Shown here: positions 6,381 to 58,305 of the stretch, piece after piece
How positions within the stretch are numbered: position 1 is the first letter of the stretch
Layout: each line of letters starts with the position of its first letter
Position numbers and translations under genes: made by a program
Notes under the pieces: model-generated
Seen by the model: the letters and a program-made list of their open reading frames with translations, nothing else
Databases searched by the model: none
What the model was told of the DNA's origin: nothing
Source of the DNA: Ascidiella aspersa
Taxonomy: Eukaryota
Direction of reading: 5' to 3'
Assembly (NCBI GenBank): GCA_963924565.1
Contig: OZ004607.1
Location: 36,642,001-36,706,000, forward strand
DNA: 64,000 bases

Positions 6381-9230
6381 GTGTTATAATGATGGCATTG
6401 GAATCACAAACCTTCCGCCCCACCTTTGGTTCCCATGCCCCAAATGTTCCACCTTTACATAAGATGCGTCGTGCAAACTTTTCAATGTTTTAAGATGATA
6501 ACTAGATGCACACACAACGAAGCATACACACAATTTGTGTGTTCACGTTACTTAATGCCTGGCGTGCTTTTTCTATAAATCAAGTGTTATTATTTCATCT
6601 CTGTGATATATAGTGCTCCACTTTTAATCTAGAAAATATGCACCTCAACGCAACCATTACCACTATACTTATTTGTTGTGGAGGACCATGACAGTTGTTA
6701 ACGTTTGGTGGTAGAAGACGTTTGGTCGGGAATTTTGACATGCTCAACACATAGGGTTGGTACTATAGCATGCCAAAGGGTTGGTACTATATTTGCAGGG
6801 GATATTTTAGTGTGTTACAGGTGCTATTGTTTTTTACTATAGTAATCGTCAAATTGTGCTGGTTAAAAGTGTCTATAGCTGCTTTAAATATTTCCTGTAT
6901 CAGTCGAATTGTTGCAGAGACAGGCAGCAAGTTGCGGCCAAACATCGTTTTAGGCAAACAAGCTTGAATCAGGCTGTTGTTTACATTAATAAATTACCGT
7001 TTAAACTTGTTTTTTTTTGTATATTTCTGCTTAATATAGTGTACTATGTCAAGTTATATGTTATACGTTTCTACGCATTTTCAAAGTAAGACATATCGAC
7101 AGCTTTTACTGATTGAGGTTTGGAAAGCATGGGAGCCTGTTTTAAGAATGACGTGACCGATCACTTTTTGAACTAGATTGCCTTGAAGATACACAAGATA
7201 ATTGGCCGTTTTGGCTGTTTGAATAGACTGGTGTGCACCAAGGATTGCATGTTTGTTGAATCCTTGGATTGGGCTGTCTGTCTGTTTTTTGTTGTTTTTG
7301 GTTCACGAAATTTTATTTGTTCGTGGTGTCCGGAGATGACACCTCGTAAATTAATTAAAGTCACGTTTTTTTAAGTGAAACGCTATTTATTCCACCTCTA
7401 CATATATCGCAAGTTTCCAAGTTAGAAAAATAGACAAGCTAAATCAAGCCTAAATATAAAGTGCTAAACCCTGTGTTTTTCCTTGGTCTAATTTTCGGAA
7501 ATTTGGCGGAACGTGGTGTATTCATCGACTTAGTCAAACGAAATTTCCAGTAAACTTAGGCACAATGCCCACCACTATCCGTGCTTATTTTGACGTTTCT
7601 CGGAAACGTTTTTAACCGGGCTTGTCCAACTTGAATCATAACACGACGGAAGGAGAGTTTTGTGACGTCACAAACACTTCTCCAGTACGATTATTTACAA
7701 AACAATAGAATGGAACAATAACAAAGCATAATTGTGGGCTTTAGTTGTGTTAATCGTACAATATTGACCGTTTTATGTTCAGTAATGAAAAGGTCAGGAT
7801 TTCACCGAAAGGTCAAAGATAGTTCAGTCTAGGCTTGGCGTATGACATCGGCAGTATTTTAAGTACGCCGTGTGTTTAGCTACAGGAGTGAATAGGTCGC
7901 AGAAAGCTGCGGCCATCGGTTCAGGTTAGTGTCCAGAACTTGTATAAATATATCACCTAAAAACAACACGAAAATGATATGAGCCAAAACGCAGCTATTT
8001 AATGGCTGTCACATATCGATATGTTAGAAGTGAAACTATACCTGATTTTGGAGCATAATGGTTGGAGGTTGTTTATTAGGCGTAATTACGCCTATACTTG
8101 ATGTGTTTGTTACTTGTTTCACACGAATTTTACAGTTTTCTTGTCAAGTTAAATTCTTATAGCCGGCGTATTAGCCTATTCCGCGCTCAAGTGTGGTAAA
8201 TCTGATTTTTTGTTTGTCAGGTCACACATCCAAAATTAAATTGGTTTGCTTTTTATAAGGATCGAACAATTTTTTAGCTTAAAGATAACGATAACCACCC
8301 CTTGTTGTTATAACACTTTTAACTATGCCCATTACATCAGCAGCTGTAACAAATGCATTTTTTTAATTGATTTAAAAACTTAATTAACGCGGGGTCAACC
8401 TAGTAACGTCGTTGCAATAAATTGTATTTATGGCTTTGAATGTGTGTTGCTCTAACGATGTGTACTAAAATCACCATAGCCCACCATAAAACTTTTGCTA
8501 TTGATACAGCCATGGTTTTGACATTTCTGTATTTGGGATTTAGTTTGAACGAATATTTGCAAAAATATATTATATTGAACGGATGATTAAGTGAAATACA
8601 ATGGGGTTTCGCCAAGTGCTAGTTTAAACTATAGCTATAAGCCCTCGCTTTTGCTGGCACAGATCCGAGTTTTATCGGGTTTTGGATGATCGAGTTACAC
8701 AATTTCGCTTCAACCGACGAGCAATGTTATTTGCTGACAGAGTAGCATTCTCTGTCCATAGTTTTCACCAAACTCAAACGGCTGTCCACTGATTGAAAGA
8801 GTTTTTTCCCCTTAAAACGGACAGATGGCCTTTTCGCGTGAAAACTAATAGGAAACCGGGACATCATATCCCCTGGGAAGCTGGATCTAATTTTCAGGCA
8901 GTTCAGTAACCATATGGTCTAACACCAAAAGGCAGCAGTGAAATTCTGTAATTACTAAATTGTATGTAAATGAAGGCATTATCTTAAAATTAAATGAAAG
9001 GGTTGTTTATGATTAGAGCTAACAAAAACAAGTTTGTTAGCATACCTTTATGAACGAATTGGTGTTTGGTGTTTATCAGCAGGTCATTAGTTAGTAAAAA
9101 TTAGGTAATTGTGTGAATTTTGTCCCGTTTTTGTTGTTTTTTTGACCTAGAAAGCGAATATCAAACATCTTGAACTATGTTTGAAGTATATAAAACCTTT
9201 AAGATCTACTGATTTCGCATAGCGTTAACT

Positions 9231-9544
9231 CGGTGGTTCGCAATCTTTTTTTTGGCTTGCGGCCACCTACAGAAATTATAACTAGGCACCCTTGCTCGTA
9301 TATTTGCTGAGTGGTTTACTATAGCATTACAATAAACGAGATTGAAACAGCACATTAACTGTGCAACAAGGTTGAAATTTTTTTTTTTAATTTTGACACT
9401 TTTATCGTACACAACAAATTGTAACATGAAGCCTATCAATAGACAAACAATTGAAATCCTACAAAATTTGAAATATCTCTCGGCACCCTTGAGCATTAAA
9501 AATGGCACCCTAGAGTGCCGAGGCACCCTGGTTCGGAACCACTG
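9231..9544. mobile_element. hAT-type MITE (family A variant)
   Basis: cggtggttcgcaa / ggttcggaaccactg ends; TSD CGTTAACT / CTTTAACT; inverted copy at ~20174-20410, deleted copy at 51863-52050. Confidence 0.8.
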
Positions 9545-9937
9545 CTTTAACTCTTGCGTATCCCGTACGAGGCGGCGTGCTGAAACTTTTACGCTTCAAT
9601 GTACACAGCTGCGTCACGTTCTCTCTGCGTGCGTGTTCGACGCTCACGTGCGTAACGGAGGGACGGACGTGCGTCTGACGCCAGCTACCTTTGGCGAGAC
9701 GGGAACGTACACCCGACCCCACCCTACGTCATAATCACCCAGGGGGCGGAAACGGCGAAACAAAACACTGAGGGAAGTTCGCTGCGTTACGCACGCGAGA
9801 TGCGTGGATCGGTGGTGAATAATCCGCGTCAATGGTTTGTTGTCGGGAATTGGAGGTTTGGCAGTAACGTAAGGTTGGCTGGCCCGTAGCACCGGATATG
9901 CCAATAGACCAGCGTTTCTCAACCGTGGTAACCCTTG

Positions 9938-9976
9938 ATGTGTGTGTGTGGGGGGGGGGGGGGGGGGGGGGGGGGG
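9938..9976 (+). repeat. (TG)n followed by a 27-nt G homopolymer inside a MITE-like element (~9910-10149)
   Basis: Read directly; element ends cagcgtttctcaac / gttgagaaacactt. Confidence 0.8.
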
Positions 9977-10406
9977 CATACGCACCGATTGTAACGTGAG
10001 GTTAGGCGAGTCTGTGTTTGCAAAATAAAACAGGTATGGCACGAGGATTGTGTGTTTAAGAGGATTGTTTTATTTATTTCGGATTCGGAGGTACTTTTTT
10101 TTGGTTGATATGTAGACCCCAAAAGATACAAATCCGTTGAGAAACACTTGTTTCTAATTTTTTCCAAGATTGGTCCTTTTTTGCTCGAAAATAAGCATAC
10201 TATTTATTGGGATTCGGAGGTATTGCAGCGAATATTACGTAAGGTCTGGCGGGCCCGTAGCACCGGATATGCCAACAGACCAGCCGACATTAATGTGCGG
10301 GGGGCATACGTAATTTTAGTTATAAGCCAGTTAAACTCGATTTTGTCGTTTTTGTTATGTATGCACAAAGTGGCGGTACATTATGTTCAGTTAACCCGTA
10401 CACAAA

Positions 10407-10770: not shown

Positions 10771-10875
10771 GCTATGCACCCCCAAAACCTGATCATGAAT
10801 TGTGACGTCATCTCGGTTAACAAAAGGGGTGACGTAGGTGCGAAATATTTTCTTGTCGCGGGCCATGGTTCAAAT

Positions 10876-12715: not shown

Positions 12716-13422
12716 CGTCTGTCCAAAAAACAAGATTGAACTGAATTAAATATTATCCCAGAATCCCGAGATACATGGAAGTGGAAAAACTTAGTAAATG
12801 ACCCCGATAATACGCTGTAGGTTTAAAGTTTGGACTATACGGGTAACTTGACTCAGTAACCAAAAATATATTTTTACACTACCCGTACGATAATTTTTTT
12901 TTCACAAGAAATTAAAATCGAAATTTGAAAAACAACACCAAATATTCTGGCAAAAATGCCTGATTCTCACCGCTCAACTCGCCAAGTGACCGTAAATGCA
13001 GATTGACAGCGACGTGACGTAACAACGCTTTAGATAAGCGCGGCCGCTATTGTTTCGTCACAATAGCCTGGTTTACATGACACGGCGTTCCGATTGTCGC
13101 TTCGCCCTTTCCCCCAAAAACCGCCGCCACTTCGCCGAACTTTCGACGAGAAACCAGAATCCCTTGTAACGGGCGCCTGCGTCGTCTGTGACGTCATTGT
13201 GGTGCGCTGTGTCAACAATCGGGGTCGCGACTTACTCGGGCGAAATTAAATCCGCCGAAATCCAGGCTCTTTGGCGCGCAAAGACGGTGATTTACGTGAC
13301 AGCAGTTTAGTTTTCATGGCGATTTCAATACAATGAGACTGCAGCATTCGTCTCATTTGAGACAACTTTAAAAACTTTGCTAAACACACGGCATTTTTTA
13401 CTGGAAATAAAGCAATTAAAAT

Positions 13423-16118: not shown

Positions 16119-18669
16119 TATAACAATTTAATACAGTTCAAAGCGCCCATAGCAAACTTAGTGTCTAAAGTTGCGAATTTCCTTTATTAAACCTACGCGC
16201 GGGCGGGCAACTTTGGCGATTAAGGCAAAGCTCTATGATGACGACGCAGAGTAACAAGAGACGGCTTGCATTGCCTGTCGTTTATCGCCTGCGACGAAGA
16301 TAAGGCAAGGCGATCGCATGCATAATTCATATCGCCGCCTCTTTGCACCCGGATATTTGCATACTAAGTCGAGAGCAAGCGGCCGCGCTCCCGCATCAAC
16401 TATGACGTCACAGACACGGTCGCGTGACTCAGCCTTACCGACGTTGGGCCCCCCCCCCTCCTTTGGCTCGCATGCGAAATCGGAAAATAACGTCAGTAAG
16501 GTGATTCACGCCAATAAGCAGAAAATCCGGCTCCGGTTAAATAAATCCCTGCTGGAAAACAGTTTGACGATGGCTTTGGTATTTATGGTGCGCGGTGACC
16601 TGAAGTGTACGCAACGTGTTAGAAACGTTTTTTTTTGTGGGGGCGAGTTTAACGTGAGTTTATCGTCGTCACAAACTGTGATTTCATCAATTTTTTGAGT
16701 ATTAAATGTCAATAGAATGTAATCGTATAGACATACCGTGATTCGGGGTGCTATTTGTTGTGGGGCTTAAAACTATAATTTCAATAAAATAATAAAAGCG
16801 AGAAGACCCAAAAAAATCGACCGTTTACAAGAATCGGCAGTAACTTGCGGTGAAGATTAAATCGATAAAATTGCAATACGGGAAAATAACTAAAGGCAAC
16901 GTTACACATTTTTTGAAGATTAAATTCTTACAGAAACGGCCAGCATACGAAAACCCGTGTATAACGCGCTTCAAGTCCTAAAACCTAAGATTTAGGATCT
17001 GTGTCACAAAACACTATAGATATTAATAAAATTATATTAAATATAGAAAATTCCAGGCCAGTCATAGTCTTTTTAACGAATAAAACCCTTCATTGTGACT
17101 CGCGAATCTCTCAAAGATTTTTATCAAAAGTTTAAAAAATCAATATTAGTCTGACAAGAAATGTACGCATATTGCTGTTAAGACTAAATCATTTGCTTTT
17201 CGACTAAACATATGCTGATTTCGCAGACTTAGTAAAAGTAATATAAATTTTTCATGATTCTATAGCAGCGATGTTTCATTCAGCCAAATTTGTTGTTATA
17301 AACCTCTAAAAATATACTTGACAGCAATTAGGTAGTTTGCCCTAATAATTAAAAATATATATTTTTTAATTAAATTTAAACTTTTGTGCCAGCACTACAT
17401 TGACGTTTCACCGAAGTTCATCGTAAAATGTATTTGCGGCGTTTCCATTTGTGGCAAGTCAGCTAAATTTACAGTTAACGCGTAAACTGAACTTTGAATA
17501 ATCAGATAATTTTGGCCGGGTCTATTTTTTGTCACGCATGTGTGATTTTCCGATGACATAGAGCTAATGCGTTCGATGTTTTAATCTGCCCAAAACGACT
17601 TTTTGCGACCACTTTCTCTCATTTGGCGTTTACGTAAATTTTAATGCGTAAAAGTGTGAATGGCGCATTTACCACCAATGACAAGCTGTGATCGGAGCAC
17701 ACTCGAGCCAATACGCATGATTCAACTGGGATTAAAAGGCAAAAACGTCACGCTTGTGGGTCCAGCACACCAGGGCTGCTTTCTTAACGCCTACGCACTT
17801 TTCGATGATGATTGAAAGGGCATGAAAGTATGCTGGATTGCTGGTGTGTATCTAGGGATGGCCTAACACGCTCCCGTGAAATTTGTTGCTCAAGACCAGT
17901 AGTTCTCATTCTACGTGCTGTTGTAACTCAAGTGCAGAAGATTTCCACCTGTGCATGGAAAACTTTGGTACAAATCCTGTCATTTTCATAGTCATTTTTC
18001 ACAATACAAATCAGCGTTTTTAAACGGAAAACTAAAAGCACCAAAAGGTGCTGCAAAAAGTTGGATTTTGGTTGAAAGCCGTATGCCTTAAAAGGGGGAT
18101 AACCAGCACATTTAACATTTTTTTCCGGATTTAGCAATAAATATAGTGGCCCAGTCATTCGTAAAGTAGGGCCCATGAGAAAAATAATCCAATTTTGCGA
18201 GACTAAAGCCAACCAAAGAGATGGCATGTATAGTGTTGCACGGATTATTTCATGATTTGTGAGTGAGTATTTTTATGTCAAAATTTTAACACCGAAGTTG
18301 GTATGATATGTATTTCTACAGGACTGCCGTACCCTTGTAACCTTGTTGCATTAAAACGTGACGTAAAACAAGTAATCATCCCCTGTAATAAAACGTGACC
18401 AAGCAAATGTTGACCATCTTGCAAAATTAATTACCAAAATCTGTTAAACTAACTACCAACAGATAACGATGTGCACAAAAGCGTCAGAAAAACGGAAACG
18501 CAATTTTACACCGCGGTCATTTCAATGACCTGCTGTCAAGTATGGCAAACCTAATTGAGCCGTTTAACGAGGTGTCATATACTGCACGTGTAAGGTCGGA
18601 TAACGTCACGGCTCGGAAATGCGATAATGATAAAATATCTCGACCGGTGATTCTTTTCGAACTACTTGT

Positions 18670-18838
18670 NNNNNNNNNNNNNNNNNNNNNNNNNNNNNNN
18701 NNNNNNNNNNNNNNNNNNNNNNNNNNNNNNNNNNNNNNNNNNNNNNNNNNNNNNNNNNNNNNNNNNNNNNNNNNNNNNNNNNNNNNNNNNNNNNNNNNNN
18801 NNNNNNNNNNNNNNNNNNNNNNNNNNNNNNNNNNNNNN
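18670..18838. other. Assembly gap (169 N)
   Basis: N run. Confidence 1.
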
Positions 18839-18839
18839 A

Positions 18840-18882
18840 GTGCGTGCGCGTGCGTGCGTGCGTGCGTGCGTGTGTGTGCGTG
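18840..18882. repeat. (GTGC)n/(GT)n microsatellite next to the gap
   Basis: Read directly; may have caused the gap. Confidence 0.9.
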
Positions 18883-20173
18883 AACAATTTCGCCGCAGAC
18901 TTGCTGTTGAGATATCATCAGTAGCGATGTCCGATAATACCGTGTCGGATCGACACCCTATGGTATGTAGCATATAATAGTATCGTCCGATACTTGGCTG
19001 TATCCACCAAATCTACTAAACACGGTAAGAATATGTTTTCGCTTTGTCGTTACAAAAATATCAAAGCCCCACCGTTGCCAGGCCCCTTCGGTGGGGTGAA
19101 TAAACCTTACTTTGAGAACTACTGGCCTTGGTGAATGCCTTGCCTAAACTTCGGCTTACTTTTCGATAGAAAATTGATAACAGACACAGAAATACGCTAC
19201 TGCGGCAAGATAACAATTGTTCTTTTTTGCCTTTACACAAAACATGCATATCAAATCGCTTTGAAAATGTAGGATTGAAAAACTACACTTATGGTTTCCT
19301 TATGAGTGCGTATTCAAATTAGCGAAAGACCCATTACATAGTCAGGTTGGATAGGGGCCAGTCTATTCTTTTCAAAGGCACGATTTGGCACATAAAAGCA
19401 ACTAGGTCAGATAGCAAGGCTACTATGTAATGGGCAGCAGGGCGAGGGCATTTTTCCTGGGAGGTTTAACAAGCGCTTCACACACATGAAGGAGCACAAA
19501 AACGGAGTTGTGCGAAAAAAACTGATTTTTGTTTAAATCCTAACCTGAACGTAATGAACCCAAATTTAAAAAAATGTTGAGAATCTTAATAAAAACCTCG
19601 GAAAAGAAAAATCTGGATAATTTTAATTCGCCATGTATTGTCGATTTTCCTGTATCGGCCACGTAATTTTTCAAAAATAGTATAATTACGGACTATGATG
19701 ACGTAATACCAACATAATATAATTTTCCAAAATAGTAGATTTGTGCAAGATACTTTTTGTTCATGAGCACTTTTATCAAAATGCAAAAACAATGGAAATT
19801 TTAATCCTCTTAAATTGTGTTACATCATGTCAAGGTTACCAACAGGTTTACAAAGATCCCTCTTAATAGAATAGACGAGTAAACATTGTATTTACAGCGA
19901 GTTAACGCACTTTGTAATTATGGCGATCAAGTCACCAAACAAATTACCGCCTGTCACATGGCAACGGTTAAAAACAGGGAGAACACATTCCATCTATTAA
20001 TCTCGCTTGACTTTCTCCCTCGATCGCCACGTTAAGTGCAAGCTAGGCACGACAGGGAACTTCCCTAACTTTGATCGCCATCCACAGAGCTGATAACGAC
20101 CTCAGTTCCACAGCAGGCATTGTTACATGCTTTAGGTAGATGCTTTAGTGTTTCTCAACCTACATGATTTAGA

Positions 20174-20410
20174 TGTTTCTCAACCGGGGTACCGCGGCAC
20201 TCATGCCATTTTAACGCTCAAGGGTGCCGAGAGATATTTCAAATTTTTTACGATTCCAATTTTTGCTCTGTTGGTAAGCTTCTTGATTTAATTTTTTATA
20301 TACGATCAAAGTGCAAATAATTAGAAAGGTTTTTTCAACCTTGTTGTACAGTTAATGTGCTGTTTCAATCTCGTTTGTTGTAACCTTACAGTCAACCACT
20401 CTGCAAATAA
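20174..20410 (-). mobile_element. Family A MITE, inverted and truncated
   Basis: Reverse complement of 9300-9544. Confidence 0.7.
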
Positions 20411-20705: not shown

Positions 20706-20712
20706 ATATAGT

Positions 20713-41634: not shown

Positions 41635-41772
<138 letters not shown>

Positions 41773-45228: not shown

Positions 45229-45292
45229 GGAGTCATTGGGTTTGCTGTTGTTCCGAGGTGGAAGGGGGTCATTGGGTTTGCTGTTGTTCTGC
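45229..45292. repeat. 36-bp tandem duplication
   Basis: gtcattgggtttgctgttgttc twice. Confidence 0.85.
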
Positions 45293-45714
45293 AACTCATT
45301 TGCTTTCTTCATGAAGTAATTTGAATCGTTTTTGTTTTTTGTTTTTTTTTTAAATTACGATTATTTCGAAATCAAATGAGTTAACGAATCAATGCAATTG
45401 AAACCTTGCCAAACTATATAAACGCTTGTGAAAAAATACAAGTACACTGTCCAGTGTGGAAACCTTGGGTTCAAAATGCCATTTTTTTTATCAAAAACAA
45501 ACAACAACCGTAGTTTAAAAGAATCAAAAAGCCTACAAGAATCAAAATCATAGTTTGCACAGAAACGGATACCGAAACGTTTTAAGCAAAAAAATGTTTT
45601 AAGCGTACAAAAATAAAAAAAAATTCAATACTACCAATAAAGTCCAAGTCGTCTCATTTAAAAACAGTGACTTGAATGCATTAAAGTAAGATCATTATTC
45701 CTAAGGGTCTAAGA

Positions 45715-46026
45715 CAGTGGTTCTTACCCTTTTTTCTTTCGTGGCCCATTTTCGTTGCACAAAAGTTCTGTGGCCCAATAAATGTTTATGAAAAAAAAAA
45801 CTATAAAATAGGTTTAGAACAAAACAGGTTTCAAAACAGATTATTTATTCAATCGTGCATTAGTGAGATACTTGCGCCTGAACAATAAATTTACATTCCT
45901 TCTCGATTCCTCCCCAATCCATTATTCTTGTAAAATTATGTATAGTGACACAAATGAAACTAAATTCCTCCATAAATCTAGCTTTTTTAATTGTTCTGTG
46001 GCCCACCAGTGAGCCATGGCCCGCTT
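45715..46026. mobile_element. Family E MITE (longer, inverted relative to 27537)
   Basis: Perfect TSD GTCTAAGA at 45707-45714 and 46027-46034; left TIR cagtggttctta; right TIR largely deleted. Confidence 0.8.
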
Positions 46027-46738
46027 GTCTAAGATGAATGAAGTTTCCAAGCAACTTCTTGCACCAGTTTGTTTTGCTCGCAATGATAAGCTCGAAGTTG
46101 TCCAGTGTTTAATTTGACGCGATCGCTCATAGCATCGTGACGTCTATTTACGACACACACCCGGGGTTGTTATGATTGCCGTTCCGCCCGATTGCTCGCA
46201 TTAGCGAGGAAAACTTGCCGGGCCCGAAGTTTTCACGTGACTCTCGTGTTGTGTTGTTTTTGTCGCGTCATAAACGCGCCTTTGTGACGCACCGCCGGCC
46301 GATTGTTCGCGGTCAGCCGGGCGTGACTGTTGACACCGGCCCAGATTTGCGTGATTTTTTGCTTGGTCGGTTGTTTTCCAGAGTGCATTGCGCTATATTT
46401 GATGGACATGCTTTAATATGTCAAAACAGGAATATTTTTCCTGAACATATAAAAGGGCGTATCCTTATGGAATTCAAAACTATTAGCAGCAGGTTTTTGC
46501 TTGTCGATCACTGTTCCGCTGACACGTATATAAACAAATGTACTGCGTTATTTAGCCACCGCGGAAGTCTATTTTGACAACTGCAAAACAAAATCAAAAC
46601 AATCTCAATAAGAAACCAATTTGCCCGAATGCAGTTAATTTTGGTGCCGATATTGTAAAAAGCAAAGATGCCGTTTCCTGTTGTTTTTAATTTTATCCTA
46701 GAACTTATTCCGACTGAAAGTTGTCAAATTTGCCCTGG

Positions 46739-47114
46739 TTTCAATTTATACCAAGGAAAGTTTCAAATTTTGTGTTTGTTTGTAATTTATTCCGACTGCA
46801 AGTTTTCAATTTTGTCCTTGTTTTCAATTTATACCAACTGCAAGTTTTCAATTTTGTCCTTGTTTTCAATTTATACCAACTGCAAGTTTTCAATTTTGTC
46901 CTTGTTTTCAATTTATACCAACTGCAAGTCTTCAATTTTGCCCTTGTTTTCAATTTATACCAACTGCAAGTTTTCAATTTTGTCCTTGTTTTCAATTTAT
47001 ACCAACTGCAAGTCTTCAATTTTGCCCTTGTTTTCAATTTATACCAACTGCAAGTTTTCAATTTTGTCCTTGTTTTCAATTTATACCAACTGCAAGTCTT
47101 CAATTTTGCCCTTG
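46739..47114. repeat. 42-bp minisatellite (7 clean units plus 2 degenerate units)
   Basis: Unit TTTTCAATTTATACCAACTGCAAGTYTTCAATTTTGYCCTTG from 46821 to 47114. Confidence 0.96.
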
Positions 47115-47144
47115 TGTTTGATATACTCATAACCCTCACTTTAA

Positions 47145-47330
<186 letters not shown>

Positions 47331-47875
47331 TAGTTATAGGTAGGCTGGTAGAATTTTGTAATTGTTTTTTCGAGAGCTGAAAAACAATATTTAAAAAGGT
47401 TGGCGCCGTTGAAATGTCGACCTTATTAGAGGAGTTTATTCTGCGTTAAAGCAAGGGCCACTAATTTTTATATATTGTAAAAAGTCTATTCACTGGTTTG
47501 TATAGTTATTAGTAGTCTGGCAGAATCTAATAAGTTTTTGAATATATTTTTTTTCACCAATTTATTTGGTTTTCTGGCTGATTCTTCGGCCGACATAGTC
47601 GCCAAGTCTCCAGCATTCTGCCATATGGTTATTGGAATATTCAGTAAAATTATTAAGTTTAAAGTTTGAGCGGCATAGATATGGTTACTTGAAAGCATCT
47701 GCGGGTTGGAATGAACTTTTCAGAAAAACAAAAAAATATAAATAGGTTAACTCGCAAACTAAGTGCATAAACCACAAAATATCATCATACTAAAGTCCAT
47801 CGATTTTCTATCGGAAGTTGCTCGGAACACTTTGCCCTTTCACCGAATGATTTTAACATTGCTGTGGTTTTCCAG

Positions 47876-47939
47876 GTGATGGAATCCAGCAGCGTGATTT
47901 ACCTTGTGTGCGAGTACGCAAGCCACGGTGAAGTGTTTG
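47876..47939 (+). CDS. SIK2: SIK coding exon 3 (hinge)
   Basis: VMESSSVIYLVCEYASHGEVF; ttccag / gtgagt. Confidence 0.96.
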
Positions 47940-48588
47940 GTGAGTATCTACTACCTACGTTCGTTGAGCTTATCCTCTTTTTGTTTGTCGTTTCTATGTG
48001 TTAAAGTGTGGGTGTTTTTTCGCGGACATTTTCGCGTATCTTCAACCTAACCGAAAAAAATTACCCTGAATATCACAAAAATAAACTAAATCTTTAAAAA
48101 ATGAATTCATACCAAAACCACAACGAAACATTGTATTGTAACGTTTAAAATAAGAAAGTGTTTTTTTTATAAAAGTTTAACGCGTTAATCACACAATCAT
48201 ACGACAATTTAAACTTATTTTGCTGTCTTTGGATTTAAAACTGCTGTCGTTGGTTTCCAAAGATACACATTGATGTAAAAATCATTCCCAAAATTAAAAC
48301 GGAAACCGGAAAATTCTCAAACCACTATCGCATTAGATTATCCTAAACGTTTAAAAACCAAGCAAACTATAGGCGGCCAGGCTTGAGGACATGTAGATTT
48401 TACTTGCATCATTATTAGTTAGTAAATTAAACTTCTACGATGTATACTTTTTTATGAAGCTTTAGACAAAAGAAAACCATAGCAAACCAAAAGGGAATAG
48501 CGGCAAAAAACAAGGTTTACCCCGAAAATAAATTTTCGGCACATATAATAACACGTGGCTCTTTAACGATTGTGCGTTTCCGTCCCAG

Positions 48589-48704
48589 ACTTTATCACAC
48601 AAGAGGAAAAGATACCTGAGGACAAAGCTCGTCGTATGTTCTACCAGGTGCTCACCGCCATCGAGTACTGCCACAAGAACAATGTCGTCCACAGGGACCT
48701 AAAG
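48589..48704 (+). CDS. SIK2: SIK coding exon 4 (catalytic loop)
   Basis: DFITQEEKIPEDKARRMFYQVLTAIEYCHKNNVVHRDLK; tcccag / gtaggc. Confidence 0.97.
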
Positions 48705-48962
48705 GTAGGCCAACTGTGACGTAGGCAACTCGCGTTGTGACGTAACAGTAGCGACGCGCGACCGTCCCACGAGAGCCGATCTTTGTGCGCTTTTGGTTTG
48801 TTCTATGTGGACGTTGGTTGTTAATGCGACTTGCGGTTATTGCGATAATGGTCTTTTGGCAGGTTTCGGCCGCGTTTCGTTAACATCGATTTTTATTGAG
48901 TTTCATTAACGTTGATTAAAAACGACAATTTTATTGAGTTTATTCGTTATTTTTTCTTCCAG

Positions 48963-49008
48963 GCAGAAAACCTTCTTCTGGACCAGAACGACAACATTAA
49001 GCTGGCAG
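48963..49008 (+). CDS. SIK2: SIK coding exon 5
   Basis: AENLLLDQNDNIKLA; ttccag / gtaggt. Confidence 0.96.
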
Positions 49009-49463
49009 GTAGGTTGTTGATTTTGTCAGGATTTTATGATAGTTAAGCCATGTTTTGTACAAGTTGGATTGCTTTACTGCCAACAGAGTTTCGCCTTTAG
49101 TTTCCTCTACTTTGGATATATTGGTTCCTTTTTAATGCGTGCAAGATAACAGGCGTTATTTATTTATTTGGTCTTTATAACTCTTAACCTAATATTCCCA
49201 CCCTTAAATCTTTAGCCACATTTTTATAAATATTTAAACGAGCTGTTCATAAAAGAATAAAAACGAGTCTGACCAAGAGTTTTACAAAAAAAGTAAGCCC
49301 ATACAAAAATTGGTAGCATTTTAAACGCCTAGAATGACTCTTTGTTCACTTTTTGTAAACGTTCAGAATGCTACCTACTGGTGTATATGGGCTTTGATTT
49401 TCTTGCTACGTCATTCTACAACCTCCAACCATTATGCTCCAGACTTTAACCGATTTTATGTAA

Positions 49464-49637
<174 letters not shown>

Positions 49638-49779
49638 TGAATTTTTTGTGTAACTAGAATCGAGTTTTAGGCGTTTGCCGAGTTCAATGGTCAAGGCGAC
49701 ACTACTTCATCTTTTTTAAATGGTGTATTGTTTTTACCAAAATGTTAAGGCAATAGAGAACCGGATAATTAAAAGTGAT

Positions 49780-49962
49780 ATTTATAACGGGAAAACGACC
49801 GTAAACTACCCATGGGCTATAATAGCATATTAGCTCTGTTTGTAAGGGTACTGCTATTAAAAAAACACAATTAAAGTGAAATGTTTAACGGGAAAACTAC
49901 TGGAAAACTACATATGGGCTTTAAATAGCATATGAGCAATGTTTGTAAGGTTACTGCTATTT
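49780..49962. repeat. ~100-bp diverged tandem duplication in intron 6
   Basis: taacgggaaaac...atgggct...aatagcatat...tgtttgtaagg.tactgctatt twice. Confidence 0.8.
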
Positions 49963-50277
49963 TTCAATGAAAAAACCCCAAAGCAGATGCAGTCAATCGT
50001 GCTCTGATTGTTTCTAACTTGCCAAGTTTACTTGGTATCTTAATGTCCTCACTATAACAGGGTCTATAAGTTCCAATAATTCCAAATGCTAGTTTTCTAT
50101 AGCATTGAATTGCTTTTACAGGATTTCCTAACAACAATTCTATTATTAGTGTTACTTAAGGGCTCTGGCGTCCGTTTCTTTTACCAGGGCAATTTCGTGA
50201 GGGCCTGGTCACAGTTATACACGGTCAAAGTGTTTCTATACACGTTACTGCGATGCAGGTTTTATCTTACTGAATAA

Positions 50278-50511
<234 letters not shown>

Positions 50512-51012
50512 TAAACAGCAGCAAACCTTTATTCCGTGTTTGCTGCGCAGCTTTTAGGGTAAGAAGTTTAAAAAGTGCGTATAGCTCAGCTTTCTGTCAA
50601 TTGACGCAAGGTTGATTACGCACGTAGGGGTTATCTATCTGGCTGGCTTTAGTCCAAACAGTCCACCTGACAGGTCAACCGTACGTTTAGGCGATTTGAA
50701 GAGGATGTCCTGCTTATAGTTACTTTAATAATGCAAAGATTTACTTGAGGAAATGGCTAGTTGCTTTAGGAATGCAAAGATAGGTTGAGGTTTCAGGTTT
50801 CATGAAAACATACAATCAAAGAACACGTCAATTGGCAGAAAGAACATAATTTCGTGGTCATCAGTAATCTCCCGTAAATATTTTATCTTTCCAGTGATTG
50901 AACCAAAAATTTAAATGCGTGGCGAAACTGTAGCAATCACGAAAGACACAAAGCCGTTCCAGCCTGATTTTTAACGACGTCCGACAATAAACACCCTCGA
51001 TTTTTGTTCCAG

Positions 51013-51113
51013 ACTGCGAGAACCTGATCCGTCGAATGCTGGTCGTTAACCCGAAGAAGCGACTTACAATCTCGCAGATCAAGAAGCATAAGTGGATGCA
51101 GGTGTTTGCCCAG
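51013..51113 (+). CDS. SIK2: SIK coding exon 8 (end of kinase domain)
   Basis: [34 protein letters not shown]; ttccag / gtaagc. Confidence 0.95.
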
Positions 51114-51165
51114 GTAAGCTACAAAACTGGATTTTTAATTAAGTGCGTTAATTAGGCCTGTAGTC

Positions 51166-51474
51166 CAGTTTTTCTCATCCTTTTATGGCTAGCGGCACCT
51201 CTGAGAGAAATAACAAATAGATTACAGCACCTCTATAAGATTTGTCCGTGGGTAATTTACTAGAATGTCACAATAAACGGACCTGGAACAACACACATCA
51301 ACTCTGAACAATGTAGGAAGTTATAATTGGATTCATTCCACTGTAATCTTACACAAAAAGTTGTAGGAGTCAACCAAAAATCAGATTCTTAAACATTTCC
51401 AAATATGTCGCGACACCCTTAAGGATTAGAAATGGCACCCTATGGTGCCGCGGCATCCTGGTTGAGAACCACAG
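51166..51474. mobile_element. hAT-type MITE (family A)
   Basis: cagtttttctcatcc / ggttgagaaccacag; flanks CTGTAGTC / CTGTATAG; similar to 4627-4906. Confidence 0.8.
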
Positions 51475-51862
51475 CTGTATAGGCTCTGTTGTTTTGCTGT
51501 TATAAGCAGGATTTCTAGGCAAGGGGTATCCGCCCTAACAATCTACTATGGTCAACTGACGATGTAAACAATTTCTACGTGCCGTTCCTTGTCAGCTGTT
51601 CGCTAATTGCGCTGTTTTTGCTCGTCATTTTTGCCGTAAGCCACTATACAAGCGTCCATCAGTTATACCTAACGAGGTCGCGAACGCGCTGTTTATGAAT
51701 GAGAGATTGCCAAGCCGGGTATTTTCGATCATTATTCAAGTCCCGTGCAGCGAAACAGCTGCTTTCGCAAACCAATTGACCAACGTGAAGATTGCCGCTC
51801 ATTATGTTAAACGCCAGGCCGCCTGCTGTATGTTGAACGTGTTGACACGCATGCCTTTAGTG

Positions 51863-52050
51863 CAGTTTTTCGCAACTTTTTTTGGCTTGCGGCAACCTAC
51901 AGAAATTATGAATATTTCGCGACACCCTTGCTCATTATTAAAACGCTTACTAGTAGGGCAAAAATTGGAATCCTGAAGAATGTGAAATATCTCTCGGCAC
52001 CCTTAAGCGGTAAAATGGCACCCTAGAGTGCCGCGGTACCCCGATTTAGA
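51863..52050. mobile_element. Internally deleted family A MITE
   Basis: Matches both ends of the 9231-9544 copy. Confidence 0.68.
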
Positions 52051-52234
52051 TTGTAATAGATGACTTGATATAGTTTAACAATAAGAGCAAAAACACATTT
52101 TGCGAAATAATTGTTTGTAGCATATTAAGGTTAAAACTGTAAGGGGTATGTGATGTCCGATACCCGATCATAAACCGTTTTTACCTTAGCTATACACTGA
52201 TAATAAAACAACAATTTGCTTTTGTGCCTCGCAG

Positions 52235-52357
52235 AAAAACGACGTCATCACGAAAGCCGACTCTCCGGCGCCACGTGTGGCCGGAATGCCCGAGTTTAAC
52301 GAGCACGTGTTAAAATGGATGCAGAGTCTCGGTCTAGACAGACTGGAAACGTTAGAG
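52235..52357 (+). CDS. SIK2: SIK coding exon 9 (UBA, first part)
   Basis: KNDVITKADSPAPRVAGMPEFNEHVLKWMQSLGLDRLETLE vs SIK2 [22 protein letters not shown]; tcgcag / gtaaag. Confidence 0.93.
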
Positions 52358-53119
52358 GTAAAGCATTTGCTGGTTTTAAAGTTAAGTCAGATACAATAAA
52401 GAGATTATAAAAAATATATATATATTTCGCCAACAAAGGCATTGTCAGCATATCTTGTATAAGTAGAATTGCTTTTTACATATCCTTTAAGATCTATTAA
52501 TTGTGTCTGACCTGAATTGCTAGCTGTGCTAGAGTATTTTGAACTGTTACTGATCAGGAATTAAAGTCGACATTTATCATGCAAGGGCCAAGGTGATTTC
52601 TATTATCACATATTTAGTGCAACATTAATTTAAACCGATATATCCTTTTACAACCCCGGTTTGGGCAAGGAAAAGGGTATTGAACAAGGATTTAATCGGA
52701 GATCTTGGTCTCTGCAGCCAAGTGTATTTAATATATGTAAATGCTTGACATCAACTTGTATATTTCGAACATTGGCTGTCTATACGGTTGTATAAGTGTT
52801 TGTTGAAAAATGCGCAGCTATAAGTGTGACAAAGTCACTAGATAGTTGAAGTTTAAAGTTCACCTTGGCACTTTTAAGATAAAAACGTTTAAAATTGATC
52901 CACACCATACCGGGTACCGCATTTCTGTTTTTCAATCGATCGCTTTCTGGTAATTGTAATTATTTATCAACATTTCGGCAACCTATTCAAATCGCCTTTG
53001 TCAGGGTGAATGACACTCAAATTACAAATTACATTTACCAGGGGAGCTGTTTTTTGATTTATATTACTATGCCTGGTAGCAACAGTTTATGTAAATCGAT
53101 CACTTTGTTGATTATTTAG

Positions 53120-53278
53120 TCTCTGCGGAATTCCTCGTACGACCACCTCTATGCTATCTACCACCTCCTAGTGGACAGATTAAAACAGCACCGAACCAGT
53201 TTTCCGCTGGAGGCGCGCATGTGCTTTGACGCGAGCCGAAGAAGACCTTCGAGCATCGCGGACCAAACGCTTACCAAG
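53120..53278 (+). CDS. SIK2: SIK coding exon 10 (UBA end; S343- and S358-equivalent sites)
   Basis: SLRNSSYDHLYAIYHLLVDRLKQHRTSFPLEARMCFDASRRRPSSIADQTLTK; atttag / gtaaaa. Confidence 0.95.
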
Positions 53279-53396
53279 GTAAAACGACTTTGGCTTTTAT
53301 TGGATGATGATCTGCTACTGTAGACCACTTCAACGTGAAGTTGCTTGTACTAACAGAATTTAGCCAGCATTGGCTTATGGTTGTTTCTCGACTCGC

Positions 53397-53472
53397 TCCT
53401 CTCTTAGCTCAGTTGGTAGAGCGACGGTCCCGGTATGACTGGAGGTCGTGAGTTCGAACCTCACTGCAGGAT
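53397..53472 (+). pseudogene. tRNA-like sequence (tRNA pseudogene or SINE head), nominal anticodon GGT
   Basis: A box TAGCTCAGTTGG, D stem GCTC/GAGC, stem CGGTC/GACTG around loop CCGGTAT, T arm GTGAG-TTCGAAC-CTCAC, TTTT at 53477-53480; acceptor stem imperfect and C at position 33. Confidence 0.75.
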
Positions 53473-53846
53473 ATTCTTTTGTCGTTGATTAGGAAGATTT
53501 CCTTATTCACATACTTTGTGTGTTCCCGTGAGAAACATGGAACCACAATCAAATACATTGGCAGTTTTAGACAAACAGCTGTAACCATCAGTAACTGATT
53601 GGCAATCGAAATTGATTTGAAACCACGATCAATATGCTCATTGCTCAGCAACAGATTTTCGCCCAATTGTAGTCGGTACAAAGCTACGAAACCAAAAAAA
53701 AGATACGAAACCAAACAAAAAGCTACGAAACACCGTTTAACGTCGGCCATATTTTACTGATTTATTTTGTAGTTACAATACGTTTTGCAGATAAATCGAT
53801 AACCGACTGACTTATTTGAAATTGAAACCTTTACCATTTTACTCAG

Positions 53847-54036
53847 GTACCCCTCATCACCCCCAGCGTTAGCCCCTTTCAGCCCGAAGTCGCCCACAAG
53901 CCCCAGTTCTTTCCAACCAAACGCAGCACGCTGCAGCACGCCTCACCTATGACGTCATTCGACGATGACGTCACGCCGGCCAAGCTGCTGCACGCGCAGG
54001 CGATCGAGCGGAACTTCGGCGATGATATTTGCCACG
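53847..54036 (+). CDS. SIK2: SIK coding exon 11
   Basis: VPLITPSVSPFQPEVAHKPQFFPTKRSTLQHASPMTSFDDDVTPAKLLHAQAIERNFGDDICH; actcag / gttcgt; GC-rich and phase-compatible. Confidence 0.8.
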
Positions 54037-54477
54037 GTTCGTACGGGACAGACTTTCTATTGGAATTTATCTAATAAGAAATTGTGGGGAGTGATAAACT
54101 TGATGTATCTCTGTTTGACTTTCTATTGGAATTTGTATATTTCTCTTTTTTGAACTTGTTTGGAGAATATACGGAATAATACGTCTAACACCTAATAATT
54201 TGGGTTTTGAAAACCCTGAAAAAATCTCTCAAAATTGTCCCAAACTTTATTATTCTAAAGTTATTTTTTAATATTTATTGATATTTAAGGATATAAATAT
54301 TTTTTATAGATCAGACTATATATATTCAGACAGAGTTGTTTAAAAAATTTTGAATGTTTCGCAATGTGATGGTTTCAAATGTGTGATGTTTATAGATCAA
54401 ACAATATGTATTCAGAGATGGAAACAACATATTTTTTAAATAAAAAGATACTAAATCCTCAATTTCTCCTCGTTCAG

Positions 54478-54773
54478 AAATCCCTCGCCTACAGCGCAGC
54501 CTGGCCATCGGGGGCGTCGGCGCCCAACAGCCCCCCGTGCACCACTCGCCCCCCAAACACCGCTACACGACCCAGGGGCCCGGCCCCAACCGGGGTCCTC
54601 TGCCCCACCAGCCCTGGTCCTTCCATTCGGGGGTTCGCATCTCGGCCTACCAACGAATAGCCAACCCCAGCTCGGTGCCTCGCTATGGGGAGGCGCGTGA
54701 CGTCATGCCGTCTGTGACGTCAATCGACGAGGGCGTCGAGCTTTCTGACATCACGGAAGAACAATCGGCGATG
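54478..54773 (+). CDS. SIK2: SIK coding exon 12 (TSIDEG motif)
   Basis: EIPRLQRSLAIGG...RDVMPSVTSIDEGVELSDITEEQSAM (SIK2 TSIDEGLE); gttcag / gtgagg. Confidence 0.88.
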
Positions 54774-55354
54774 GTGAGGGGATTTTTTGTGTGTGTTTAA
54801 AATCGAATGAAATCTTGTGTAAAAAAATAAAAAATGTACTGAAAAATGTGACACAAAAAAAAACAAAAAAAAATGTGTCGTCTAATGCTAAATAACTACA
54901 AGTACAATGAACCAGATATAAAAACTGCACTTAACACAGATTTTTCGTGTTTAAAATTGAACAAAATGTTGTGTAAATAATATAAAAAATGTCGCCTAAC
55001 GCTAAATAATTATAAGTATAACTGATATCGCTACAGCGATCTGGCGAAAGCAAACTAAGCTCGTACCGGGGTGACGTCATTTAAAATTGAACAAAATATT
55101 GTCCCTATAAAAACCCCTTCATACTGTAGTTGTACCCAGCCTGGTGACCATCTTTTCTGATAAAAAAACACAAGTACCCTATCGTTAAACACGCTTTTGT
55201 TATTTACAACCTTAATTGATTTGTCAATGCTTTTAAATTTATAAACATCAGCGAAATCAACTTTGCTGATGTGCGGTAACCTGTAAAAAAAACCATAACT
55301 GTCTTTTTAATATACTTTTTATGGCAATTTACTATGAAACTGATTTTTTTACAG

Positions 55355-55501
55355 ATGCGCCAGGCGTCGCAGCATCGACGTCACACGCTGGTCGTACCAG
55401 ACGTGACGTCATACCCCCCCAACCTCAACTTCCACGACCCCCAGACGCTAAACCGATCGACCGGCTTCGTCGGGATTACGGCCGATACCCATCACAACAC
55501 T
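55355..55501 (+). CDS. SIK2: SIK coding exon 13 (RRHTL, T484-equivalent)
   Basis: MRQASQHRRHTLVVPDVTSYPPNLNFHDPQTLNRSTGFVGITADTHHNT; ttacag / gtaagt. Confidence 0.9.
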
Positions 55502-55899
55502 GTAAGTTAGCAGTATATGGTCAGATTTAAATACAAAGACATGGCTCATATTAATTTAATTCTTATTAAAGCTAGTGTCTTATTTGTGAGATGTTCACTT
55601 TAAGCCTACGAAATGTTCACCAAAGAGAAACTGTGTAGTCAAAGCTTTGCTGTTGAACCTACGTCTAGTGTTTGGGTTGCCGCCAAAAAAGGTTGAGCAA
55701 CTCTGAATTAACCGTTAAACTTTTGAAAATGCGCTAATTAGGCAGTTTTCTTAAACAAACTTTAAGTTTTAAAGCTTCATACAGGCTACCCTGTATTTTC
55801 CGAGCCGACTTTAAACCGTTCGGGTGCTGGTTATCTGTATCCGCCAAATATTTTATGTAGACGCCAGGAATTTTTTATGCGTTGTGGACGCAGGATCGG

Positions 55900-56010
55900 G
55901 GCTACGAAGTGGGTTTAAAATAATCGAGTCCGACTCTCGAGTCTCGGGCCCGACTCCGGTCAAATGTGCGATTTCGTCGAGTCCCGAGTCCGGCCCTGAC
56001 TCTACAGCCT
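55900..56010. mobile_element. Family I MITE (GAGTCCGACTC repeats)
   Basis: gggctacgaagt...gagtccgactc...gactctacagcc. Confidence 0.6.
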
Positions 56011-56389
56011 TTATGGAATACTCTATTAGTTTTCAAAAATCTGTCACACTAAAAGTAGTGCAAATAAACATTGACATCTTAGTAGCTTTTTCACCTCTTT
56101 CTCAGGTTTAAGCGAACGTACAAACTGACTTTAAATCAATAAAATACTTTAAGAGTGCCTTCGACGGCGGCGATTCGAATTTTAAACAAAGCAATACAAT
56201 TCACACTTTCCCGGTAGTGTTTGCAGTTAGCGCTCAATCGACTGAAATATTGTTATTTGGCTTGCATGTGGGATACTCTATTAGTTTTCAAAATTCTTTC
56301 ACACTAAAAGTGGTGCGAATAAACACCTGTCTTAGTTAGAACTTCTCTTTTTAGGTCAAACTGACTTTAAATCAATAAACTACTTTCAG

Positions 56390-56633
56390 AGCGCTTTCGA
56401 CGCCGGAGACTCGCTTTCGAGCGCCTTCTCGGAACAAAGCGACGTCCTGGAAATGGACCTCCAAATACCCCCCATGCCCAACAACCCTGCCTATGACGTC
56501 ACCAACAACCGTGGCTATGACGTCACGCCCAAACTGGTACTTTCCCCGCCCGTCGACGCCGCGCACCCGATGGTGGATCCCCGAGTGACGCAGATCGAGA
56601 ACCAGCGACAGTTGCTGGACGTTTCTCCAACAG
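56390..56633 (+). CDS. SIK2: SIK coding exon 14
   Basis: SAFDAGDSLSSAFSEQSDVLEMDLQIPPMPNNPAYDVTNNRGYDVTPKLVL...LLDVSPT; tttcag / gtgaga. Confidence 0.85.
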
Positions 56634-56640
56634 GTGAGAG

Positions 56641-56945
56641 CAGTTATTCTCAACCTTTTATGGCTTACGGCACCCCTCAAAAATAATAAATAGGTTTTCG
56701 GCACCCCGAATGGATTTTTGTTATGGTATTTTACTGAAATGTCACTATAAATGGAACTGGAACAACACAATCAACTTGAACATGTAGAAAAATATTATTT
56801 GATGTACCGGTCTCTAATCGTACACAAATAGTTGTAAGAAGCTTACCAATTGAGCAAAAATCAGATTCTTAAAAATTCTTAAATACCTATCGAACCCTTG
56901 AGCATTACAAATCGCACACCAGGGGTTGCGGCACCTCGGTCGGTA
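56641..56945. mobile_element. Family A MITE starting 7 nt into intron 14
   Basis: cagttattctcaacctttt...; highly similar to the 24017 and 40879 copies; right TIR lost. Confidence 0.8.
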
Positions 56946-57099
56946 GTGCGTAGGTCTATATAGTTTGACGATCATTTGAAAAAACGCAGCATTGCACTTG
57001 GTTCTTTTGGTAAACGCCCAATCGTTAACTCTCACTATGTTCGAATCCCACAACCAGTGGTGACGTAAAACACTAACGCCCCTCCCCGTCCAATCACAG

Positions 57100-57284
57100 G
57101 CTTCCGTCAGGGCAGGAGGGCCAGCGACGGTCTGCTGTTGCTAGGCGACAACCGACTGGGGGAGCACCTCAAGTTGACCAGGGTCCAGGGATTCCCCACC
57201 ATCACCCAGGAGGAGACCGATGACGCCTGCCTGGAGACCAGTGACGTAGAGTCGGATTGCGTCAGCACGATGCCCTACCAACTG
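57100..57284 (+). CDS. SIK2: SIK coding exon 15 (RRASD, S587-equivalent)
   Basis: GFRQGRRASDGLLLLGDNRLGEHLKLTRVQGF...STMPYQL (SIK2 FREGRRASD); tcacag / gtgagt. Confidence 0.93.
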
Positions 57285-58144
57285 GTGAGTGACGTCATGA
57301 TTTGTTGTTGAGTTTAAATGTAGTGGGAGTTTTGTTATTAAATACTCGTTTAAGTAAATATTTATCGCGCGGTTGTGAGTCGTGACAATTTTGCAAAAAG
57401 GAAAACGTCAAGCAAACATAAAATCCAGCGCCGAACCTTTTGCCGCATATTTAGAATATAAAAAATCCCAATTTGTTTTTTTTAACACCGCATGCTTGTC
57501 TTTGTAATTGCCAGCTGCAGTTATTTTTTCTTTGCAACTCACGTTTTGCTTCTTTAATTCCATCTTACCGTTACACATCAATCCTGTCGGCAAAAAACCC
57601 TCAAACGAAACACATCGAACTTACCAACTGTTAAAAAAGCAACTAACTTGCAGAAGCTCTTAGCGTTAAGTCGAATAGGGGGATATGTGTTATAGCGTAA
57701 TATTTTGATGTATTGCTTTTGCACAATGTCTTCTTATTGGAAACAATTCATTTGGCTGATATTCTCTACCTGTTTGATACAATTTTATGCTTCCAAATCT
57801 TGTGTTAACGGAACACCAAATTTACAGCAGTTGGTTCGGTTGCTGTTGTATATGCTTCACTTTAGCCAATATTGTTCAGTTTTAAGTATTTCGAGCTAAC
57901 TCTGGGGTAACCGTTGGAAAGCCACTGTAACGATAAGTCATTTAACAAGTGTAGTCTACCGGGTATTTTGCGCAATTACTCTATCCAGGCGAGCATTGAA
58001 AGATGAAGACACTCGCGCCAAAGTTCGTGTAATTTAATAACCACTGACTCTTTAGTTTGCTTTGCTTTTTACCACTTGGTTAGGATGCTTATTGTCATTT
58101 AAAACAAGCTTTAATATTAATCTTATTTTTTTCATAATTTTTAG

Positions 58145-58305
58145 AATCATCTGGCAGCTCAAAAGACCACGCACAACGAACTGGGAATGATGTCATCGCA
58201 CTCGTCACACCACCTCACCAAGGGCGGTGACGTCATCAATTTCCAGCCCTACACTCCGACGAGCCGAAGGAAAAGCCTCCAAGTTTCCCAGGCGCTCGGC
58301 GAAAG
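58145..58305 (+). CDS. SIK2: SIK coding exon 16
   Basis: NHLAAQKTTHNELGMMSSHSSHHLTKGGDVINFQPYTPTSRRKSLQVSQALGE; ttttag / gtaaga. Confidence 0.83.

Follow-up and report, generated by a model that had tools for sequence, protein, structure and literature searches.

We analysed a stretch of 64,000 nucleotides from Ascidiella aspersa (GenBank assembly GCA_963924565.1, contig OZ004607.1, positions 36,642,001 to 36,706,000 of the forward strand), referred to as the window, which carries a SIK1/2-type kinase gene together with 22 copies of TGACGTCA, the full palindromic cAMP response element (CRE). The window has a GC content of 39.7% and a CpG observed/expected ratio of 1.14, and TGACGTCA is its top-ranking palindromic octamer. 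A preliminary description, made from the letters of the sequence, had listed 22 sites, and recounting verified every coordinate, with none missing and none additional. Its estimate of about one site expected by chance agrees with dinucleotide shuffles of the window (n = 100; mean 0.76, maximum 4), none of which reached 22. The variants that it mentioned are also present, nine times as TGACGTAA and seven times as TTACGTCA, including the one over the RIOX1 stop, whose first bases are the TGA that closes the last exon of that gene.

The SIK locus

The kinase gene noted at this locus is genuine, though its exon model was derived from the sequence and is not RNA-confirmed. Its product revealed an AMPK-type kinase domain followed by a UBA domain (match to UBA_SIK3) and a long C-terminal tail in which RRx[ST] motifs occur four times, and its closest relatives are SIKs, named SIK2-like in the databases. 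Compared with P0001, 640 of 918 residues are identical, and the nearest named protein is the SIK of Phallusia mammillata. An acceptor-like AG at 41558, ahead of the SIK ATG, points to an upstream exon or to trans-splicing. About 6% of an RNA run (X4) contained no read joining SIK exons, 2,365 of 2,378 reads matching partly and no positive control being included. On the other side of the window, Pfam RIOX1_C_WH matches were found on the two exons preceding the last RIOX1 exon (678–908 and 1779–2036). The 39 kb from RIOX1 to SIK (2830–41643) showed several GC/CpG-rich islands and no convincing protein-coding segment, a Pfam scan not being included in this assessment, and are probably the regulatory region of SIK.

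The features are listed below; CREs are given without strand, and L250 is an ascidian-like SIK locus with the same exon pattern.

2733–2819, plus strand: last RIOX1 coding exon, from the sequence; its TGA stop begins a TGACGTAA variant (2817–2824)
41644–60972, plus strand: SIK1/2-type kinase gene, 19 coding exons, 1017 amino acids, no internal stops, all introns GT-AG
7663–7670: CRE, distal upstream, non-repeat
10803–10810: CRE, distal upstream, non-repeat
13189–13196: CRE, distal upstream, within an island rich in GC and CpG (53% GC)
16403–16410: CRE, distal upstream, within an island rich in GC and CpG (53% GC)
29061–29068: CRE, upstream, in a GC/CpG-rich island (53% GC)
32084–32091: CRE, upstream, in a GC/CpG-rich island (63% GC)
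33676–33683: CRE, upstream, with three half-sites and CACGTG at most 150 bp away
38783–38790: CRE of the proximal cluster, 2.85 kb ahead of the ATG; TTACGTCA at 38799
39540–39547: CRE of the proximal cluster, 2.1 kb ahead of the ATG
39610–39617: CRE of the proximal cluster, 2.0 kb ahead of the ATG
40708–40715: CRE of the proximal cluster, 0.93 kb ahead of the ATG; TTACGTCA at 40622
41773–41780: CRE, intron 1, position +4, overlapping the splice donor region
53950–53957: coding CRE, exon 11, M-T-S (amino acid 402); orthologous place in L250 matches 7 of 8 bases
53966–53973: coding CRE, exon 11, D-D-V-T (amino acid 407); full site at the orthologous place in L250
54698–54705: coding CRE, exon 12, R-D-V-M (amino acid 504); P0001 lacks the peptide
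54715–54722: coding CRE, exon 12, V-T-S (amino acid 510); L250 matches 7 of 8 bases
55072–55079: CRE, intron 12
55404–55411: coding CRE, exon 13, V-T-S (amino acid 546), adjoining an RRHT motif
56494–56501: coding CRE, exon 14, Y-D-V-T (amino acid 613), in one of the copies of a 24-bp in-frame tandem duplication (56478–56526) not present in P0001
56518–56525: coding CRE, exon 14, Y-D-V-T (amino acid 621); full site at the orthologous place in L250
57290–57297: CRE, intron 15, position +6, overlapping the splice donor region
58228–58235: coding CRE, exon 16, G-D-V-I (amino acid 749); D-V-I retained in P0001, lost in L250

Eleven sites lie upstream of SIK, three in introns and eight in coding sequence, the last of which had been overlooked. 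The upstream sites are found in GC/CpG-richer DNA (48% GC vs. 40% at random upstream positions), and the four most distal ones are closer to the end of RIOX1 than to the start of SIK. Fifteen of the 22 belong to two clusters, one of five sites in 3.0 kb around the SIK start codon and one of ten in 4.3 kb of C-terminal exons and introns, while two stretches of about 12 kb each (16411–29060 and 41781–53949) are free of sites, so that the impression of a locus-wide saturation was overstated. The second of these stretches contains nearly the whole kinase domain. A splice-donor role of the +4 and +6 sites was considered and dropped, as 15 of 472 sampled site orientations follow a donor-like word, close to the estimate from flank composition.

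Abundance of CREs in the genome

Counting TGACGTCA and its reversed word in the assembly of 308.6 Mb (G000) resulted in 45,059 and 5,750 copies, respectively, the former corresponding to 9.35 per 64 kb. Its excess amounts to 7.8-fold against the reversed word, about 12-fold against shuffles and 16.5-fold against an order-2 Markov model. The genome-wide motif bias that had been offered as one of two options is hereby demonstrated, at about 12 times the shuffle expectation of the window, and explains about 9 of the 22 sites. The window exceeds the genome mean 2.36-fold, and TGACGTAA-type variants show the same ratio as the full site (16 vs. 6.75 per 64 kb).

For ranking, 32 windows, each 50 kb long and placed at round megabase coordinates, were picked before counting; they are spread over all nine large contigs and cover 0.5% of the genome. 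Their mean of 9.44 per 64 kb agrees with the genome value, and two of them match or exceed the density of the window (95% interval 0.8–21%), while a negative-binomial fit to total counts gives 0.05 for at least 22 sites. On total counts the window is thus high but not extreme, the word that had been used for the proposed feedback loop; the first 164 kb of contig C1 alone contain 100 sites. Site counts per sampled window are strongly overdispersed (variance/mean 3.6), and pairs at most 30 bp apart number 5,094 compared to about 204 under random placement. Over the 32 windows, density did not correlate with GC content, CpG ratio or distance from the chromosome end (P 0.43, 0.43 and 0.74). In 10-kb bins a weak association with CpG ratio was seen (rho 0.19), with no sites in the seven bins below 0.6. 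The C1 start (G000:C1:1-164000) has 39 CREs per 64 kb, part of them in a tandem array, and close pairs are much denser in the first 0.5 Mb of C1 than further inward; chromosome ends may be enriched for CREs.

Repeat-borne and non-repeat sites

A site was regarded as repeat-borne if another copy was found within a search space of 1.86 Mb, a definition by which families of fewer than about 150 copies can be missed in the window and the sample alike. By it, 144 of the 234 sampled sites (62%) lie in repeats, compared to 204 of 600 random positions and none of the 22 sites of the window, and 25 similarity clusters bear TGACGTCA. Both denser sampled windows owe their counts mainly to repeats (16 of 20 and 19 of 20 sites). 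Non-repeat sites average 3.7 per 64 kb in the sample, with 11 in 50 kb in its richest window, and by this count the window exceeds all 32 sampled ones. The fitted negative-binomial tail for 22 is 0.001, a value that depends on the fit, since 32 windows directly bound the share of richer windows only to below about 9–11%. The window is therefore not average in the genome, which had been named as the finding that would speak against locus specificity: it stands at 2.4 times the mean and ranks first of 33 on non-repeat sites. Per non-repeat kb it has 0.44 sites versus 0.091 in the sample (maximum 0.28), and its densest 5 kb hold ten sites compared to at most seven. The 100-kb flanks contain 6 and 15 non-repeat sites, and because they are this poor the SIK locus forms a local peak.

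Many unrelated short repeat families (L021–L180) carry a full CRE in their consensus (eight of ten families tested), some of them twice or three times at intervals of about 25 bp. The idea that the word is shielded from mutation within repeats was tried and is unsupported. With motif-masked queries, 60% of homologous copies had retained the word versus 29% for shifted 8-mers, but approximately 54% is predicted from choosing word-carrying queries. In a consensus test the motif reached 0.80 and the flank 0.87, the motif being higher in three of ten families, and masking may add gaps.

Coding sites and codon choice

In the SIK coding sequence, the word is spelled at 8 of the 11 places where synonymous codons would permit it, while codon usage predicts 0.58, and none of 20,000 synonymous shuffles exceeded five sites; one of the missed opportunities overlaps a used site. 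Half-sites are not enriched (12 vs. 13.4), which together with the 8 of 11 opportunities used marks the word as a feature of DNA or RNA rather than a by-product of the protein. All eight coding sites fall into the tail (amino acids 402–749) and none into amino acids 1–350, and one of them arose together with the 24-bp in-frame duplication in exon 14.

The opportunities themselves are in excess, the peptides DV[TIM] and [MV]TS occurring 10 times in SIK versus 0.97 in shuffles. Phallusia SIK has nine (0.82 shuffled), Clavelina four and Styela three. Among 22 other SIK-relative proteins, 21 revealed 0–2 and one snail protein six, four of these inside a repeat. In 37 other open reading frames (ORFs) of the genome the count was 23 versus 11.3.

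Other genes and SIK relatives

Thirty-eight long control ORFs, selected after exclusion of six overlapping loci and of the window's own exon and in some cases extending into introns, harbored 10 sites compared to 1.1 expected from synonymous shuffles, namely seven in 17 Fox ORFs (five of them in a single FoxL2-like ORF, L208), two in 7 bZIP ORFs and one in 14 RRM/helicase ORFs. Most genes are without sites and a minority is rich. Coding-like segments hold 25 of the 92 non-repeat sampled sites versus 3% of random positions, a scoring that also flagged four non-coding sites of the window. A FoxL2-like single-ORF gene (L208:727-2016) about 95 kb from the end of contig C5 carries eight CREs in 3.3 kb. 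In a PLAT-repeat gene (L128–L130, G000:C4:30.02-30.05 Mb), several CREs stand at similar places in successive PLAT domains. Paralogous kinases, with one site in nine loci of 3 kb, were dropped as unfair controls, the matching exon of SIK also having none within 1.5 kb.

The L250 locus, portions of which are repeated in L251–L253, contains five sites within 24 kb, two of them coding sites that are orthologs of those at 53966 and 56518. Two further orthologous places match in 7 of 8 bases. A distant animal SIK locus, represented by the mutually similar L254 and L256, carries a pair of CREs at distances of 156 and 238 bp ahead of its ATG. Among the loci L181–L246, most RRM/helicase and SIK3/MARK-like ones show CpG ratios of 0.25–0.7 and low GC content at third codon positions, and most Fox and bZIP ones ratios of 1.0–1.25; SIK and the window belong to the CpG-rich class, a pattern expected for mosaic gene-body methylation.

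Motif specificity and candidate binding factors

In the sample, 11 of the 12 one-mismatch variants occur at 0.7–1.7 times the order-2 Markov expectation, whereas TGACGTAA/TTACGTCA reach 3.3 times; TTACGTAA reaches 4.3 times. Position −1 is a purine in 90% and the base ahead of it a T in 49% (234 sampled sites, both orientations), which is the pattern of TRTGACGTCA in Ciona notochord enhancer regions. We take this combination of variants and flanks to be the specificity of ATF/CREB dimers (bZIP). Both features of a CRE bound by such a dimer, the preceding purine and the tolerated TGACGTAA, are thus found, and all 22 sites of the window are the exact octamer. As a candidate factor, the genome revealed PF00170 matches at C5:15765031 and 15765358, presumably of CREB1/CREM type. 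They belong to two CREB-type bZIP terminal exons 327 bp apart (L192 and L193, G000:C5:15765031-15765489), each with its own acceptor and stop, an arrangement that we assume to resemble the pair of alternative DNA-binding domains in vertebrate CREM.

Interpretation

SIK is one of the richest CRE loci of the genome and a strong member of a class of CRE-rich genes. We lean slightly towards selection for full ATF/CREB-dimer sites that is weak, acts throughout the genome and is strongest at some genes, with SIK as a likely true CREB target; its sites are likely binding sites of ATF/CREB-family dimers, kept by this weak selection. A broadly expressed CREB/ATF dimer would bind full sites irrespective of their location in DNA that is rich in CpG and likely unmethylated, each site contributing slightly to accessibility or inducibility, and such a slight benefit per site would let them accumulate in repeats, introns and weakly constrained protein regions. 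Induction of SIK by cAMP and CRTC would come from the proximal cluster, the cluster of exons 11–16 would act as an intragenic enhancer, and phosphorylation of CRTC by the induced kinase would then dampen the signal, as is known for the CRTC1-SIK1 loop of mammals. The promoter of mouse Sik1 contains a conserved CRE, and the gene closes the loop with CRTC1 (PMC3898689); in some Ciona enhancers mutation of CREs lowers reporter activity (PMC6589888, PMC4010673). Constitutively accessible Ciona Ebf elements contain mainly CREB and T-box sites (PMC6952182), and in mouse CpG islands CRE binders are regarded as probable chromatin openers, loss of ATF1 alone having no effect (bioRxiv 10.64898/2026.05.04.722487).

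Several observations weigh against this selection-based reading. About 5% of windows, some 240 of 4,821, are this rich on total counts, so that the post hoc choice of a window with a CREB-linked gene can be coincidence. The four upstream sites counted as proximal lie 0.9–2.9 kb before the ATG, and the term proximal refers to this codon alone. Genes without a known role in CREB feedback are as rich: the FoxL2-like ORF has five sites in 1.3 kb (3.9 per kb vs. 2.6 in SIK), and the PLAT-repeat gene six coding-like ones, four of these in ORFs with PLAT matches, two of which are above the cut-off. SIK thus belongs to a class and is not a unique locus, and of the two options first proposed the genome-wide bias stands, while an extreme loop is not supported on total counts. 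No site was found in 3.2 kb of a bZIP locus that we presume to be Jun-like (L191), nor in a transcript-like SIK relative (L247), and L250 uses two of its eight synonymous opportunities. Two Ciona FoxL2 proteins have no DV[TIM]/[MV]TS peptide and that of Clavelina has one (the matches included no Phallusia FoxL2), so that, given the peptide excess in Phallusia SIK, richness is kept at SIK in Phallusia and not at FoxL2 in Ciona and Clavelina. Finally, the CRE sites of two Ciona notochord enhancers are dispensable (PMC11001920).

A bolder form of the selection reading is possible, though we hold it with more doubt than confidence: the ascidiid CRE palindrome may be an animal highly iterated palindrome, its 45,000 copies selected for CREB/ATF binding, dictating synonymous codons and adding DVT, DVI, MTS and VTS peptides, so that the C-terminal exons of SIK would double as a CREB-bound enhancer closing the gene's own feedback loop.

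A neutral bias seems rather unlikely. Here, mutation, repair or gene conversion, together with word-carrying repeat families, would produce a motif that is visible where protein constraint is loose, and the SIK excess would be regional variation chosen post hoc. The repeat-borne share (144/234 vs. 204/600) with its 25 word-carrying clusters, the overdispersion of 3.6, the very rich C1 start and FoxL2-like gene 95 kb from the C5 end, and the confinement of 8 of 8 coding sites to the SIK tail with none in amino acids 1–350 all fit it. However, none of the 22 sites lies in a detected repeat and the 100-kb flanks are poor in non-repeat sites (6 and 15); the variants that are tolerated and the purines next to the word resemble the specificity of a protein, no protection from mutation was seen in ten repeat families (0.80 vs. 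0.87), and the peptide excess is common to Phallusia SIK at partly different positions.

We consider it improbable that a protein bound to the palindrome organises chromatin, replication or recombination, the identity of nearby genes being minor, as in a chromosome-level mark similar to cyanobacterial HIP1. One octamer palindrome in 12- to 16-fold excess within and between ORFs, the 10 sites versus 1.1 in 38 control ORFs, and Ciona CREs without transcription-start bias (PMC1796609) would agree with such a mark, but the sites come in pairs and patches, and a known family of transcription factors has exactly this word as its site, with some Ciona CREs being required for enhancer activity. There is a small chance that the 22 sites form a single extreme, cis-encoded feedback loop peculiar to SIK, as the first rank of 33 on non-repeat sites and the tail of 0.001 might suggest; against it stand a genome mean of already 9.35 per 64 kb, equal density in two of 32 windows, unrelated genes as rich, the two 12-kb gaps and the four distal sites nearer to the end of RIOX1. 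Smaller still is the chance that the cluster of exons 11–16 serves as a cAMP-driven promoter inside the gene, comparable to the P2 promoter of CREM for ICER, yielding a kinase-less SIK tail that competes for partners. Its ten sites in 4.3 kb lie directly 3' of the kinase and UBA exons, exon 13 opens with an in-frame ATG before RRHT and RRAS motifs, and the intronic ICER promoter has four CREs (PMC3941242); yet most sites lie within exons and not ahead of one, and a single-exon gene has similar clusters.

Relation to known systems

CREs as such are already known, as are the SIK loop and Ciona enhancers rich in CREs. The locus resembles the mammalian CRTC1-SIK1 loop in its SIK-family gene, its full CREs before the coding start and its RRx[ST] tail motifs (PMC3898689). 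Unlike mouse Sik1 with its conserved promoter CRE, it has 22 sites, eight of them coding, in a genome where the word is about 12-fold over-represented, and its loop is predicted from sequence. In the human genome CREs amount to 25% of the expected number, and for Ciona CREs the same source gives only the lack of start-site bias (PMC1796609). TRTGACGTCA occurs ten times in one 1.8-kb Ciona notochord enhancer region, mostly outside minimal enhancers (PMC11001920). The Ciona CRE enhancers described so far in the sources at hand (PMC11001920, PMC6589888, PMC4010673, PMC6952182) are non-coding elements of selected genes, whereas the present data comprise a genome-wide count and sites in coding exons. 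Our literature searches, with most subscription papers and supplements outside their scope, found no paper on a genome-wide or coding CRE excess in ascidians.

Like TGACGTCA, HIP1 (GCGATCGC) is a single octamer palindrome strongly over-represented in and between ORFs (PMC5861425). HIP1 is 15- to 300-fold enriched, periodic and not tied to gene regulation, whereas TGACGTCA is 12- to 16-fold enriched, patchy, 62% repeat-borne and a known transcription-factor site. With regard to conservation across genomes as known for HIP1, one gene was compared, in which two of eight coding sites are full in L250 and two more match in 7 of 8 bases.

Transcription-factor sites that lie in exons and are written there through the choice among synonymous codons are termed duons. 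In contrast to these, one motif occurs here repeatedly within a single gene (at 8 of 11 opportunities) and apparently shifts the amino acid sequence as well. If selection for one transcription-factor site can indeed fill 8 of 11 codon positions and reshape a disordered tail, SIK would be an unusually clean test case of dual DNA and protein coding, and in ascidians electroporated reporters make synonymous recoding cheap. Recurrent DVT and MTS peptides in ascidian proteins may then be DNA signals and not protein motifs. CRE enrichment in ascidian motif searches must be set against the genome background. Were the neutral bias true instead, the genome would have an undescribed motif-making process.

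Further features of the locus

A tandem array of a 42-bp unit (46705–47115; 9.8 copies, 89% matches) with long open frames on both strands stops 50 bp ahead of SIK exon 2. A tRNA-like short repeat in SIK intron 10 (53400–53470) showed very high copy depth in DNA contigs.

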